A stretch of DNA of 22,273 bases from a virus (lineage: Duplodnaviria > Heunggongvirae > Uroviricota > Caudoviricetes): the IMG/VR virus record IMGVR_UViG_3300010998_001290; one strand, given 5' to 3'. Below, piece by piece: positions 2,904-18,111 of the stretch; position 1 is the first letter of the stretch, and each line of letters opens with the position of its first letter. The position numbers were made by a program, and so were the translations under genes. The notes beneath the pieces are model-generated. The model saw only the letters and a program-made list of their open reading frames with translations. It ran no database searches and was not told where the DNA came from.

Positions 2904-3033
2904 CGGGGCAGCTCGATGTCCTTGGGACGATGAAGTACCTATCAAGCATAGGCAACTCTCGTTAAGGTTAATCCCTGTACAGTAATCCACAGGGCGCTTG
3001 TGATAGTGCGAGACGCGAAGGTAGCAGAAAAAC
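2904..3033 (+). ncRNA. putative Cas12f single-guide RNA copy 1 (scaffold 2904-3013, guide cgcgaaggtagcagaaaaac)
   Basis: Dispersed repeat with covarying stems, ends agtgcgaga, resembles AsCas12f1 tracrRNA/repeat. Confidence 0.8.
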
Positions 3034-3059
3034 AAAAATACGATAAAATCCAAAGTTAG

Positions 3060-3539
3060 GTGAAAAACAATATGCAAACCAAGAGAATAGTAGATGTCTG
3101 CTGCGGGAGCAGGATGTTCTACTTCAATAAAAACAATCCCGACGTGATGTTCTGTGATAACAGGGACTTCGAGGATACCTTATGTGACGGAAGAAAGCTT
3201 GAAGTCCATCCTGATCTGATAGCAGACTTCACCAATCTTCCATTTGAGGACGAAAGCTACTATATGGTAGTGTTTGACCCTCCTCATATGCTTAAGGGCG
3301 GTAAAAACTCTTGGCTTGCGAAGAAATACGGCAAGCTCCCGCCCGACTGGAAGCCTCTTATCAAGAAGGGGTTCGATGAATGTATGAGGGTACTTAAGCC
3401 TAACGGAACACTTATCTTCAAATGGGCTGAAGTCGATATTCCTGTGTCGGAGATAATCAAAACAATAGGTGTCGAGCCGATATTCGGACATAGGGTCGGC
3501 AGGTTAAATCAGACGCACTGGATGTGCTTTATGAAGTAA
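3060..3539 (+). CDS. phage SAM-dependent (N6A/N4C-type) DNA methyltransferase-like protein
   Basis: Motif I-like IVDVCCGSRMF and motif IV-like VVFDPPH. Confidence 0.8.
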   Translation: MKNNMQTKRIVDVCCGSRMFYFNKNNPDVMFCDNRDFEDTLCDGRKLEVHPDLIADFTNLPFEDESYYMVVFDPPHMLKGGKNSWLAKKYGKLPPDWKPLIKKGFDECMRVLKPNGTLIFKWAEVDIPVSEIIKTIGVEPIFGHRVGRLNQTHWMCFMK

Positions 3540-3546
3540 GAAATAT

Positions 3547-3675
3547 CGGGCTGGCTCGGCAGCCTTGGGACGATGAAGTGCTTATCAAGCATAAGTAACT
3601 CTCGTTAAGGTTAATTCTGCCATAGCATTCCGGCAGACACTATAGAAGTGCGAGATGGATCAATGAACAGCTGGC
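3547..3675 (+). ncRNA. putative sgRNA copy 2 (scaffold 3547-3655, guide tggatcaatgaacagctggc)
   Basis: Same scaffold with compensatory stem changes (tctgcc/ggcaga). Confidence 0.8.
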
Positions 3676-3699
3676 AACACAAAGAAAGGAGTTATCATT

Positions 3700-3942
3700 A
3701 TGGCTTTTGAGAACAAAAAGGATACTAAGTACGGAGTTCATTATTCGCGATGGATAGCATCATGGTTAAACAGCGGAGGAAAAACAGGAATTTTGTTTAG
3801 AGCTTGGCTCGAAGACATGGGGCTTGCCTCAGAGGAGATAACAGATATTGTTAGCCTTGCTACAACAGGAAAATGTGAATTCGAAAAATCCGCAAAAAAG
3901 TTTATAGACAGCAACGTAAACACAGAACGTACCTCTCGGTAA
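3700..3942 (+). CDS. hypothetical phage protein
   Basis: 80 aa, strong RBS aaaggag. Confidence 0.75.
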   Translation: MAFENKKDTKYGVHYSRWIASWLNSGGKTGILFRAWLEDMGLASEEITDIVSLATTGKCEFEKSAKKFIDSNVNTERTSR

Positions 3943-3962
3943 TTCTTTTACTAAGAATAATT

Positions 3963-4159
3963 CGGGCAGGCTCCGGCTATAGGCAGAGCCTGATGTCAGC
4001 TTCGCGACAGCCTTGTAGTGGACGAAAGTCAGGCATCAAGCTTTGCTTGTATCCGAGAAGCACCTATCCAAGTATAGGCAACTCTCATTAAGGTTAATTC
4101 ACACATATTATTCCGTGTGACGCTCATTAAAGTGCGAGATGCAACAAATCAGAGAAAAA
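3963..4159 (+). ncRNA. putative sgRNA copy 3, long form (scaffold 3963-4139, guide tgcaacaaatcagagaaaaa)
   Basis: Conserved 3' core plus two 5' insert modules. Confidence 0.8.
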
Positions 4160-4190
4160 CAGAAAGGAGCGCCGAAAGGCGAATAAAGAA

Positions 4191-4679
4191 ATGAAAGTTA
4201 AAAAGATAAGCAATTATGACCTTTATATGCTTAAGAGAGCAGACATAAGAGACGACTGCGAGGAGTTAAAATCTCTTGAAATCGTTCCTATGGCAATCAT
4301 CGACAAGAATGCAGAGACCCCGGACGCTGCGTACATCTTCTATCTGTGTACAAAGACCGTCGGGAATCAGCAGGGTGTACATAAAGGAACGGCGGTAGTA
4401 ACATCCTCAAAGGAAGGCGAATGCGATATCGTGTTCAACGATTTTGCCTCTGATGTGGACGTCAAAGATGTGTATAAAACGCTTGATAAGGTCACAGAGG
4501 CGGTGATTACCCGTGGATATCATCTTGTAAGATTTGCCCACGAGGGGAACAAGAAATATATCAACGCATATAAGAAGGTCGGCTACAAGAAAAGCGACAC
4601 CGACGGTGTTGTCGAACTCAGAAGCGCCGAGGAAGTATCTGTAAACGCTGCTCTTGCGGGAGTTCTCGAAACACTGTAA
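4191..4679 (+). CDS. hypothetical protein, possibly GNAT-like fold
   Basis: NKKYINAYKKVGYK resembles the GNAT C-terminal motif; weak support. Confidence 0.6.
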   Translation: MKVKKISNYDLYMLKRADIRDDCEELKSLEIVPMAIIDKNAETPDAAYIFYLCTKTVGNQQGVHKGTAVVTSSKEGECDIVFNDFASDVDVKDVYKTLDKVTEAVITRGYHLVRFAHEGNKKYINAYKKVGYKKSDTDGVVELRSAEEVSVNAALAGVLETL

Positions 4680-15886: not shown

Positions 15887-15901
15887 GAAAGGAGTTTCAA
15901 A

Positions 15902-16204
15902 ATGAAAGAAGAGGTAATAGGCTTTGCTATAGGAGCGCTTATGTCAGTAGGATTTGCAGTGTACCAGTTTATAAAATCACATAAATCCAATAATCTCAGT
16001 CCTTTTATGGATAGGGTAGCCGGCTGGTTTGGCGTTTTTATGTGTGCGTTTTGCGTGTTAGGAGCAATCAGTTGGTGCTATGCTCCTGACGACACTATTA
16101 AGACGGATACAGCACAAGTGCCGGGTACTATGATAACGGTGACAGATGAAAGCTCGATTATCGTAAACGGAAATACTTACATTCTCCAGACTGATAAGGA
16201 GTGA
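15902..16204 (+). CDS. two-TM membrane protein, DExTxIVNGxxY family
   Basis: RBS aaaggag; VTDESSIIVNGNTY. Confidence 0.8.
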   Translation: MKEEVIGFAIGALMSVGFAVYQFIKSHKSNNLSPFMDRVAGWFGVFMCAFCVLGAISWCYAPDDTIKTDTAQVPGTMITVTDESSIIVNGNTYILQTDKE

Positions 16205-16209
16205 GTGAT

Positions 16210-16621
16210 TTGAAGAGCGGCGAACGAATAAGATTTGCACGACTTAAGAAGGGTTTATCACAACAAGAACTTGCAGATATGCTGAATGTCGCTAAACAGA
16301 CGGTGTTTAAATATGAAAACGGTATAATCAAGAATCGAAAAGGGTGATTTCTACTGTTATGAGATAAAATCCTCAGTAGATGACTTCAATTCTCCTAACG
16401 GACACAATTTTATAGGCGACTTCAATTACTATGTAATGAAGGAAGATGTCTATGAGCAGGTCAAGGATAAGATACCCTATAGGATAGGAGTTTATATTCC
16501 GGGAGAAGAAGGAAAGCTTAAGATAAAGAGAAAGGCTATAAGAAAAGACAGAAAACGCGCTGTCTCTGAAATGATGTTGATGATGTTCAGATCGGCTAAC
16601 AGAGACAGGTACAAGGCATAG
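16210..16621 (+). pseudogene. internally deleted, frameshifted HTH-nuclease paralog
   Basis: TTG-start HTH fragment 16210-16347 joined out of frame at 16334 to IEKGDFYCYEIK..., 38 nt identical to 14838-14875. Confidence 0.8.
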
Positions 16622-16634
16622 GAGAAAGAAAGAT

Positions 16635-17129
16635 ATGAACAGAGATGTAATATTTTCAGTAGCTGAAGTCAGGAAGAATGCGATTGAAGCAATGGAGACT
16701 TGTATGGCAGATATCACGGTTGGAAACACCATAAATGTGATACGCGACAGAGGACAAGCTACGGTGTGGGAAGGCATTCTGAATGATGTGTTTGGTGAAG
16801 ACTTTTGGGACGATGATCATTATCAGTCAATGCATGATACCTATCGCCTCTGGCTTTATGAAAAGAATCCTGAGCTTAACGGCAAGATTACTAACGATGG
16901 TTCGAGGCATATAGGTGATGCAGAACGAGAGAAGATAATAGCGGCAATCAACAATTATGCCGCTTACAAGCTTACGACAGCCTCTGAAATCGGGGCAAAG
17001 CTTGAAGCGTATGGCTTTTTAAAGGGGCTTTTGAGCGCCTACGATATGGAATTATCGGTAGACGAACCCAACGAAAAGGTTATAAAGTATATCAACAACG
17101 GAAATGTGTTCTTACACTGGAAGAGCTGA
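16635..17129 (+). CDS. hypothetical protein (paralog of 15140-15388 with C-terminal extension)
   Basis: MNRDV...AMETCMADITVG...RGQATVWEGIL. Confidence 0.8.
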   Translation: MNRDVIFSVAEVRKNAIEAMETCMADITVGNTINVIRDRGQATVWEGILNDVFGEDFWDDDHYQSMHDTYRLWLYEKNPELNGKITNDGSRHIGDAEREKIIAAINNYAAYKLTTASEIGAKLEAYGFLKGLLSAYDMELSVDEPNEKVIKYINNGNVFLHWKS

Positions 17130-17157
17130 TATGATAGAATGAGGAAGAAAGACTATT

Positions 17158-17937
17158 ATGACAAAGACTGTAGTTGAACGCCTTGTCAAAAAAATAGAGC
17201 GTGAGCTTGGGGTCGTGTGTGATCCCAAGTCTTTTCAAAGAACTTATGCCGGCTATTGGCAAAAGAGGGCAGGGGCTTATGTATGGACAATGAGGGTTAC
17301 TGGATCTGATTTGGAAATCAGAAGTTGCGATCCTGCATCATTATGCGTGAGAAAGGAATATACTCTTTTCTTGAAGAATGGAGAAATATTCGCTGAATCC
17401 ACGTCTCGTAATAAAAAAAAAGAGGTGAATAAATTGGATAACAATGCAAGAGTAAGATACGCCCGTCTTAAGAAAGGGATGACGCAGCAGGAACTTGCTG
17501 ATAAGCTGAATGTCGCCAAGCAGACCGTATACAAGTATGAAAACGGTCTTATAAAGACCATTCCTTATGATATAGTCATGAAGATGGGAGAAATTCTTGA
17601 TGTTAATCCGGCATATCTGATGGGATTTGAGAACAATGACTGTCGGAAAACGGTTGGGGTCGATGATGATTTGGGTGAAATGCTTAATTTTGCTCTCCGT
17701 TATGCTATCGGAAGAGGTACATACTCGTCAATGTCCGTTCCTGCATATATAACTCCGCTTATTCCTGAATTAACTAACCGGACGCTTGTAGTGATGGCAA
17801 GGGATATAGTCGCAAGGAAGAACGAACCATTTGCCGGAGATGAGCCCTACGGAGACCCCAACATAGACAAACCAGCATGGATAAAGCTCCTTGTAGATAT
17901 ACGAGAAGAGCTTAGAAAGCGCGGGATTAACGAATAA
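17158..17937 (+). CDS. fusion of hypothetical domain, XRE HTH and C-terminal domain
   Basis: HTH ARLKKGMTQQELADKLNVAKQTVYKYENG; internal RBS gaggtg and in-frame TTG at 17434. Confidence 0.75.
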   Translation: MTKTVVERLVKKIERELGVVCDPKSFQRTYAGYWQKRAGAYVWTMRVTGSDLEIRSCDPASLCVRKEYTLFLKNGEIFAESTSRNKKKEVNKLDNNARVRYARLKKGMTQQELADKLNVAKQTVYKYENGLIKTIPYDIVMKMGEILDVNPAYLMGFENNDCRKTVGVDDDLGEMLNFALRYAIGRGTYSSMSVPAYITPLIPELTNRTLVVMARDIVARKNEPFAGDEPYGDPNIDKPAWIKLLVDIREELRKRGINE

Positions 17938-17945
17938 TAAGCATT

Positions 17946-18111
17946 CGGGGCGGCTCGACGTCCTTGTGGCGGACTAAAGTCAGGCATCAAGCTTTGCTTG
18001 TAGCCGAGAAGTACCTATCGAGCATAGGCAACTCTCGTTAAGGTCAATTCCGCAATAGTATTCCTGCGGACGCTCTTATAGAAGTACGAGAAAGGAACTC
18101 ACAAATAACAT
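17946..18111 (+). ncRNA. putative sgRNA copy 7 (scaffold 17946-18091, guide aaggaactcacaaataacat)
   Basis: agccgagaagtacc...ggcaactctcgttaaggt...tccgca/tgcgga-cgctc; the copy closest to the recalled AsCas12f1 tracrRNA; followed by a terminator. Confidence 0.82.

Follow-up and report, generated by a model that had tools for sequence, protein, structure and literature searches.

The stretch of DNA analysed here (the window, 22,273 nucleotides (nt) of the virus record IMGVR_UViG_3300010998_001290) is part of the JGI metagenome contig Ga0139362_1000266 (301,622 bp), of which it covers approximately 84.4-106.7 kb. Near its start lies a gene for a Cas12f-like protein, followed by seven dispersed copies of an RNA scaffold, each of which runs into a variable segment that is considered here as a candidate guide. 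The window further contains a transfer-messenger RNA (tmRNA) at 5353-5709, nine tRNAs, cyclic di-GMP enzymes, helix-turn-helix regulators and a Tn916-type integrase. All genes of the region are on one strand, with short gaps between them. Near-identical elements were found on contigs of up to 400 kb, and public sequencing runs with parts of the stretch carried the labels sheep, bovine or unspecified gut metagenome; no RNA run was among the runs listed. The carrier is a very large or giant mobile element of a rumen bacterium, and its host belongs to the Bacillota. In the following, clade A denotes this element, clade B a related element whose Cas12f protein is 97% identical, L003 a more distant element and L001 a relative of this element with ~95% identity.

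The Cas12f-like protein and the scaffold units

The Cas12f-like protein, P0001, showed a match to Pfam PF07282 (Cas12f1-like TNB). When it was compared with the PDB by phmmer it aligned over its full length (residues 16-472) with the AsCas12f structures 7WJU, 8J12 and 8DZJ (E values 7e-57 to 2e-56), and we regard this homology to a solved protein as decisive for the predicted fold. Four zinc-finger cysteines were invariant across a family alignment. The RuvC-I motif, however, reads GVHIGV in P0001 as against GIDLGV in its relatives, the histidine being residue 266. Glu 369 and Asp 457 of RuvC are retained, so that two residues of the Asp-Glu-Asp triad are present, and the motifs flanking them are degraded (TSQ, which is lost, and NADxNAA). 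P0001 does not stand alone in this respect. The same histidine occurs in P0003 and P0004, relatives with 36% identity to P0001, and the RuvC-I Asp was absent from at least 18 of 84 aligned sequences (the clade of the query and the nearest representatives of 50%-identity clusters), where it was replaced by H, Q, K, F, Y, N, I or V. These replacements therefore point to a radiation of probably dead Cas12f proteins. P0001 itself is most likely nuclease-dead, a loss of cleavage deduced from one residue, and the guide RNAs presumably act together with it. In all relatives the effector gene is carried on the element and the units are conserved alongside it.

An open reading frame (ORF) of 236 amino acids (aa) without a Pfam match (window 1862-2572) overlaps the stop codon of the presumably dead cas12f gene, and the two therefore look translationally coupled. 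This ORF is present in this element and in L001 and is absent from clade B, in which a gene of 99 aa directly follows cas12f. No sigma-70 domain was detected in the neighbouring ORFs of 79, 236 and 99 aa (E up to 1) or among the window ORFs that were scanned. Neither adaptation genes nor a CRISPR array were seen in the window.

Seven scaffold copies of ~110-180 nt each were located in the window by direct-repeat search, alignment, a regular expression and a covariance model, R1, which was built from 13 units (Table 1). In the window R1 returned exactly these seven units (E 5e-32 to 2e-26) and no weaker matches. An eighth, unit 0, was found by R1 5.5 kb upstream of the window (L002:4004-4123), and no units were detected in a further 9.9 kb upstream or in 11 kb downstream. 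The scaffolds all terminate in AGTRCGAGA (3' ends at 3013, 3655, 4139, 5330, 7593, 14258 and 18091), and the 20-mers that an earlier note on this DNA had listed as candidate guides therefore begin exactly at the positions which it gave for them; the regular expression and R1 agreed on every start. Immediately after GTRCGAGA conservation breaks off abruptly, and the columns beyond it in the seven-unit alignment are unrelated.

The scaffold is a structured RNA. Across the 13 units 97% of cells were paired, compared with 25-51% in slid controls, compensatory changes occurred in 11 of the 22 pairs, and none of 500 shuffles reached the observed covariation score. No Rfam family matched the scaffold at E values up to 1. 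A strict scaffold pattern had no occurrence in IMG/VR, none in the GTDB species genomes and a single one in the JGI metagenome contigs, which was L003; a search of IMG/VR with P0001 gave no match.

Units 0, 4 and 6 are located directly downstream of the TGTGTAC-box / CATACTA promoters of the element (L002:3934-3990 for unit 0; for the others see Table 1) and thus form the first part of the respective transcripts, and the other units lie within operons. Unit 0 of this element has an intact end followed by 47 nt. In clades B and C (L004:1264-1383; L001:4047-4166) unit 0 is degenerate: it ends GTATAAAA and runs into a ribosome-binding site, leaving no guide. Summed contig depths in the scaffold bins (window 2880-3040) reached up to ~17 times those of the flanks in the sheep-gut run X2, and chimeric scaffold joints were seen, which suggests that the X2 community contains many more scaffold copies or variants than the eight known here.

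Table 1. Coordinates of the Cas12f-like gene, the scaffold units and the candidate guides in the window
Feature	Position	Strand	Evidence and comparison
Gene for AsCas12f-like P0001 (482 aa; RuvC-I Asp to His, GVHIGV)	417-1865	+	Pfam Cas12f1-like_TNB; AsCas12f alignment; family alignment
Scaffold unit 1	2894-3013	+	R1, 129 bits; whole cassette absent from L001
Candidate guide g1	3014-3033	+	Unique; lost with scaffold in L001; replaced in clade B; one change in X2, at 3026
Scaffold unit 2	3537-3655	+	R1, 120.7 bits
Candidate guide g2	3656-3675	+	Unique; changes in X2 at 3656 and 3667
Scaffold unit 3 (extra 5' module; core 4019-4139)	3960-4139	+	Repeat search, alignment, R1; last 31 nt duplicated in clade B
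Candidate guide g3	4140-4159	+	First 15 nt kept in clade B as second spacer; changes in X2 at 4147 and 4158
Scaffold unit 4 (extra 5' module; core 5210-5330), just downstream of TGTGTAC-box promoter 5095-5156	5185-5330	+	Repeat search, R1
Candidate guide g4 (22 nt), ending at tmRNA 5' end (5353)	5331-5352	+	Different 20-nt segment in clade B
Scaffold unit 5, beginning at about the end of tRNA-Leu(CAA) (7480)	7475-7593	+	R1
Candidate guide g5; next tRNA-Leu starts at 7629	7594-7613	+	Different segment of 28 nt in clade B
Scaffold unit 6, downstream of promoter 14073-14134	14139-14258	+	Repeat search, R1
Candidate guide g6	14259-14278	+	6-7/20 identical to same-position guides of clade B and L003
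Scaffold unit 7 (extra 5' module; core 17970-18091)	17942-18091	+	Repeat search, R1
Candidate guide g7, followed by terminator-like hairpin and T-run at ~18118-18146	18092-18111	+	Different segment in clade B

Candidate guides and their targets

The affinities of the scaffold became apparent outside the element. R1, which was built solely from the units of this study, found matches directly 3' of related cas12f genes, two of them active relatives (L017, E 1e-5; L014, E 6e-4 and 1e-3) and one the dead relative P0004 (L013, E 5e-3). In L014 and L017 the R1 match is followed by CRISPR arrays with repeats of 30-32 nt and a period of 65-68 nt, and the 3' ends of these repeats (GGAGTGCGAAG) resemble the 3' end of the scaffold. 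Because R1 matches stand beside the arrays of active relatives, the units of the window are RNAs of the tracr or omega type that run directly into a variable segment. The layout of a unit is the anatomy of a natural single-guide RNA (sgRNA). In L014 two tracr-like regions (1473-1972 and 3279-3645) flank one cas12f gene, each with a short array and with different repeats, and no cas1 or cas2 gene is present near this cas12f.

The variable segments are most likely the guides of natural sgRNAs for a nuclease-dead Cas12f, because active relatives have a tracr-like RNA homologous to the scaffold and the protein is AsCas12f-like with a mutated RuvC-I. The view that the segments are guides, already put forward in the earlier note, is backed by this homology and by the Asp-to-His partner protein, and also by a spacing of ~20 nt and by comparative patterns. 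In intact units there are always at least 20 nt between the scaffold and the next functional element. The gap between scaffold and tmRNA 5' end, for example, measures 22 nt in clade A and 20 nt in clade B, the sequences being different. Unit 3 of clade B (L004:9779-9970) consists of the scaffold, a new 20-nt spacer, a duplicate of the last 31 nt of the scaffold and the old guide g3. In other words it has a repeat-spacer-repeat-spacer layout, and the duplication resembles a step by which a one-piece guide RNA would be converted to a tracr plus repeat-spacer. The junction of the duplication lies in the loop of the third hairpin. L001 has neither scaffold 1 nor its guide. Since both are missing together, the guide belongs to the cassette and not to a pre-existing flank, which argues against a right end of the IS605 type.

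The guides change rapidly between elements that are otherwise very similar. Between clades A and B, with their 97% identical Cas12f proteins, the best-aligned flanks are 90-96% and the scaffolds 61-84% identical, and the guides at units 1, 4, 5, 6 and 7 share 3-7 of 20 positions, which is the level of chance. At unit 6 of clade B and L003, the first 17 letters of the guide are identical (17/17), while identity amounts to 74% for the scaffolds, 65% for the promoters and 52% for the downstream gene. At a per-site identity of 74%, 17 consecutive identical letters have a probability of ~0.006, and the identity points to selection on that guide. The comparison of guides at orthologous loci, for which the earlier note had called, thus gave a divided answer: one guide is conserved across diverged scaffolds, but guides 1-3 drift at about the synonymous rate in the close relative of run X2, which goes part of the way towards the neutral drift that the note had named as a refutation.

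Searches for targets of the guides gave little. In the window and 9.6 kb upstream of it no second match beyond chance level was obtained (12 nt with up to 1, 16 nt with up to 3 and 20 nt with up to 5 mismatches), and the mismatch scans of both strands bear out the statement of the earlier note that the guides have no long match elsewhere in the window. Matches to 7-nt seeds numbered 29, where 33 were expected, and had no common flanking motif. Prefix and mismatch scans of both strands with 14 guides yielded no convincing target in 43.6 kb of the element and 28.7 kb of clade B, nor did one emerge from the 11 kb that follow the integrase or from a matching chromosomal contig of 4.7 kb. In 201 genomes of a candidate host family, that of G001, g4 had 15 matches with up to 3 mismatches, compared with 13 for the reversed control. 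In G003, the best proxy for the host, and 12 of its relatives, g1, g2, g3, g5, g6 and g7 gave matches with 2-3 mismatches alone, mostly at no higher frequency than the reversed control; for g3 there were 10 matches versus 3 for the control. A BLAST search of GenBank phages with g1, g2, g3 and g6 gave E values of at least 0.2 and hosts that were all unrelated, and exact 17-18-mers of g1, g2, g3, g6, g7 and the unit 6 guide of clade B occurred in IMG/VR about as often as expected by chance for the assumed size of the collection. The observation that would have been decisive according to the earlier note, a T-rich motif shared by enriched seed matches, was made in none of the sequences searched. 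These searches are insensitive to strain-specific or intergenic DNA, and at least ~65 kb of the same contig upstream lies outside the sampled region.

Some individual matches were considered and rejected as targets. Guide g3 matched L079 in 20/20 positions (intergenic, flank CATAA), and the unit 6 guide of clade B matched L085 in 20/20 positions inside an ORF that by eye looks like an epimerase gene; the IMG/VR matches, to which these two belong, have no flanking motif in common and were rejected for this reason. A 10-nt prefix match of g7 is preceded by TGTGTAC, a heptamer which is frequent inside genes here, and the site is no promoter box. Adjacent prefix matches of g3 (10 nt) and of the clade B unit 6 guide (9 nt) in a minus-strand transglutaminase-like gene were noticed post hoc and have no motif in common.

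A target was, by contrast, found for a distant relative. P0206 (469 aa, 34% identical to P0001, RuvC-I Asp replaced by Asn) is encoded beside an integrase in the Oscillospiraceae metagenome-assembled genome (MAG) GCA_009777725.1 (G206). Five dispersed R1 matches (E 3e-9 to 6e-4) surround its gene. Each of them continues with an 18-nt linker and then a 32-nt repeat, and where a second repeat is present the spacers measure 34-35 nt. One spacer matches in 35/35 positions a site 19.8 kb away on the same contig, antisense inside the gene of a ParA-like ATPase (AAA_31, E 1e-32). On the protospacer strand ATTC stands 5' of the match, so that TTC adjoins it, a T-rich motif of the Cas12 type. Such a perfect self-match is as expected for a regulatory effector that does not cut. 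It shows that the class uses dispersed guide modules and that at least once such a module is directed against a maintenance gene, either on the mobile element that carries it or on a neighbouring one. Given this target on the contig of G206 itself, our leading guess for the guides of the window is a set of targets elsewhere on the element or on rival elements. The most probable places for them are those stretches of the same element that lie outside the sample and other elements, co-resident or rival; conserved host genes are less likely. The earlier note had named host genes or promoters, competing elements and other parts of this element; by analogy, the G206 target beside TTC favours the last of these, or a neighbouring element.

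Proposed function and rival explanations

We put the probability at roughly two in three that the seven segments, together with the eighth upstream, are the guide ends of one-piece guide RNAs for the element's own dead Cas12f, which would silence the DNA they match. The units would be transcribed as parts of the operons of the element. Host RNases would then release the scaffold with ~20 nt of guide, a step to which the processing of tmRNA and tRNA probably contributes in units 4 and 5, and the resulting RNAs would load onto the AsCas12f-like protein. AsCas12f works as a dimer and the same is probably true for P0001. Because P0001 lacks the first catalytic Asp of RuvC, it should bind matching DNA without cutting. 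Binding would occur beside a short, probably T-rich motif and would block transcription or another DNA transaction, with the result that the bound gene would be silenced or otherwise controlled. It might be asked whether the complex would not bind to the gene of its own guide. In each unit GAGA, and not a T-rich motif, stands in front of the guide-encoding DNA, and binding to the own gene would therefore be prevented. That guides are replaced rapidly between near-identical elements agrees better with targets that vary (on elements that are rivals or co-residents, or in variable regions of this element) than with conserved host promoters.

Several observations weigh against this proposal. For none of the seven guides did the searches made here bring up a target. 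Just one of the three RuvC residues is altered in P0001. In the close relative of run X2 guides 1-3 are kept with 1, 2 and 2 substitutions (5/60 nt, or 8%), among them guide positions 1 and 8, and since this is close to the nearby synonymous rate, selection on guides 1-3 is not evident. G206, moreover, with its repeat and spacers of 34-35 nt, is an analogue and does not have the same RNA architecture, and five of its six tested spacers had no second match in that genome.

A bolder version, which we offer tentatively and think rather less probable than its failure, is that giant elements of rumen Clostridia carry an array-free and cleavage-free guide repertoire against maintenance genes (e.g. 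partition), either their own or those of rivals. A dead Cas12f would take many one-piece guides, each transcribed independently and quickly exchanged from lineage to lineage, and new guides would arise by the 31-nt duplication. If this were true, silencing of maintenance genes would provide copy control or nuclease-free exclusion. The 31-nt duplication would be the step that splits an omega-type RNA into trans-activating CRISPR RNA (tracrRNA) and repeat, and the birth of a CRISPR array, or its reversal, would be seen in progress.

It could be argued that only the scaffold matters and that the 3' segments are linkers. The units would then be protein-binding leader modules which control the processing, stability or translation of what follows. 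This would agree with the position of each unit directly upstream of a gene, tRNA, tmRNA or terminator, with the negative target searches and with the nearly neutral drift of guides 1-3 in X2. The position carries less weight than it appears to, because with all genes on one strand and short gaps between them an insertion will always end upstream of something. A linker, moreover, is hard to reconcile with a guide that is kept 17/17 across 74%-identical scaffolds, with the minimum of 20 nt that every intact unit keeps ahead of the next functional element, with a clade B duplication spacer of exactly 20 nt and with the perfect DNA target beside TTC of a spacer in the relative G206. On balance we consider this explanation improbable.

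Phages have been described whose natural sgRNAs (viral single-guide RNAs, vsgRNAs) subvert Cas9 (vsgRNA / rAcrIIA1; bioRxiv 10.64898/2026.06.01.729453), and the units of the window, being sgRNA-like and carried on a mobile element, could be decoys that hijack or sequester a host Cas12f in a similar way. In that case one would look for the effector in the host. The vsgRNAs act on host Cas9 and their phage has no effector, whereas here a matching Cas12f-like protein is encoded by the element itself and has been conserved together with the units throughout the relatives. Five candidate host-like genomes had neither a P0001 homologue nor the scaffold, although this is weak evidence as these MAGs are incomplete. 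Decoys thus appear very unlikely. Least credible of all are right-end (omega-RNA) remnants of the IS200/IS605 type, in which the 'guide' would be the insertion flank, or decaying and functionless CRISPR leftovers: the protein family does descend from TnpB, the copies are dispersed and vary in presence between relatives, and clades B and C have a degenerate unit 0, but the guide in L001 was lost with its scaffold and not retained at the empty site as in IS200/IS605 TnpB, no conserved left end or target motif exists upstream of the units, and the RNA is under selection, as its compensatory changes and its conservation across diverged elements show.

If the segments are guides for a dead Cas12f, the question arises how the system relates to those already known. 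The closest relatives by descent are the type V-F systems of the AsCas12f clade (7WJU, 8J12, 8DZJ). P0001 is homologous to AsCas12f over its full length including the zinc-finger cysteines, and active relatives within that clade possess a tracr-like RNA homologous to the scaffold. Unlike AsCas12f, P0001 has His in place of the RuvC-I Asp and hence no complete catalytic triad. Unlike type V-F Cas12f systems, which combine an array with a separate tracrRNA, the window has one-piece guide RNAs dispersed as single genes, and the carrier is a giant mobile element.

In function, closer parallels are found among regulators. TldR proteins are RuvC-inactivated TnpB-like repressors, some of them phage-borne, that use one adjacent guide RNA and a conserved host promoter target such as fliC or oppA (Wiegand et al., bioRxiv 10.1101/2023.11.30.569447; PMC13622181). 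They share with this locus an inactivated RuvC protein (here deduced from one residue), an RNA in which the scaffold precedes the guide and the expected repression by DNA binding. This locus differs in possessing a set of at least eight guides, which are replaced from one near-identical element to another and for which no target was found in the searches, and in its lineage, which is of the Cas12f type with CRISPR-bearing sisters. The dCas12f-sigmaE systems of Bacteroidota contain a nuclease-dead Cas12f exapted from CRISPR, with natural chimeric single guides that are sometimes located away from the protein gene (Hoffmann et al., Nature 2026, PMC13472631). A dead Cas12f with natural one-piece guides is thus common to both. 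The dCas12f-sigmaE protein is, however, distant from P0001 (9N9C, E 3e-9, as against 1e-56 for AsCas12f), no linked extracytoplasmic function (ECF) sigma factor was found in this locus, and one guide with many targets contrasts with many different guides. The hosts are different too, Bacteroidota in the one case and Bacillota, with the system on a mobile element, in the other. On the whole the system would work most like TldR and dCas12f-sigmaE regulators, differing from them in lineage, sigma linkage, number of guides and guide turnover.

The use of nuclease-dead Cas12 and TnpB relatives as RNA-guided gene regulators is a very recent discovery. TldR and dCas12f-sigmaE have been described as having one guide RNA beside the protein gene, or one guide with several targets. 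The locus described here would represent an independent origin within the AsCas12f clade, with at least eight dispersed single-guide genes, and would be part of a wider, undescribed radiation of RuvC-I-mutated relatives. Should the targets be maintenance genes of mobile elements, this would amount to natural copy control of the CRISPR interference type or to conflict between elements. The units would also be a natural source of compact sgRNA designs for a scaffold that genome editing already employs.

Chromosomal context and host

The right part of the window (20999-22273) and the DNA onward from it (L110:7797-20888) contain Tn916-type Xis and integrase genes, followed by the chromosomal genes for DegV, SIR2, aspartyl-tRNA synthetase, MutS2 and RecO. 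A separate contig, L111, carries an identical DegV gene with another left neighbour, and the two contigs become identical within the 3' end of a gene for a low-molecular-weight phosphatase. Two explanations offer themselves: integration of the element (or of an integrative and conjugative element at its edge) in a host chromosome, or a chimeric assembly of the contig.

The choice of G003 as host proxy is based on its aspartyl-tRNA synthetase, which is 96% identical to that encoded on the contig. Neither the scaffold nor a P0001 homologue was found in G003. This genome, the rumen MAG 'Ruminiclostridium sp.' RGIG5032, possesses two aspartyl-tRNA synthetase genes (G003:C215:1206-2975), the second of which is of the 42%-identity type found in the sister MAGs G001, G002 and G004. 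G003 is thus either a close relative of the host or a mixed bin.

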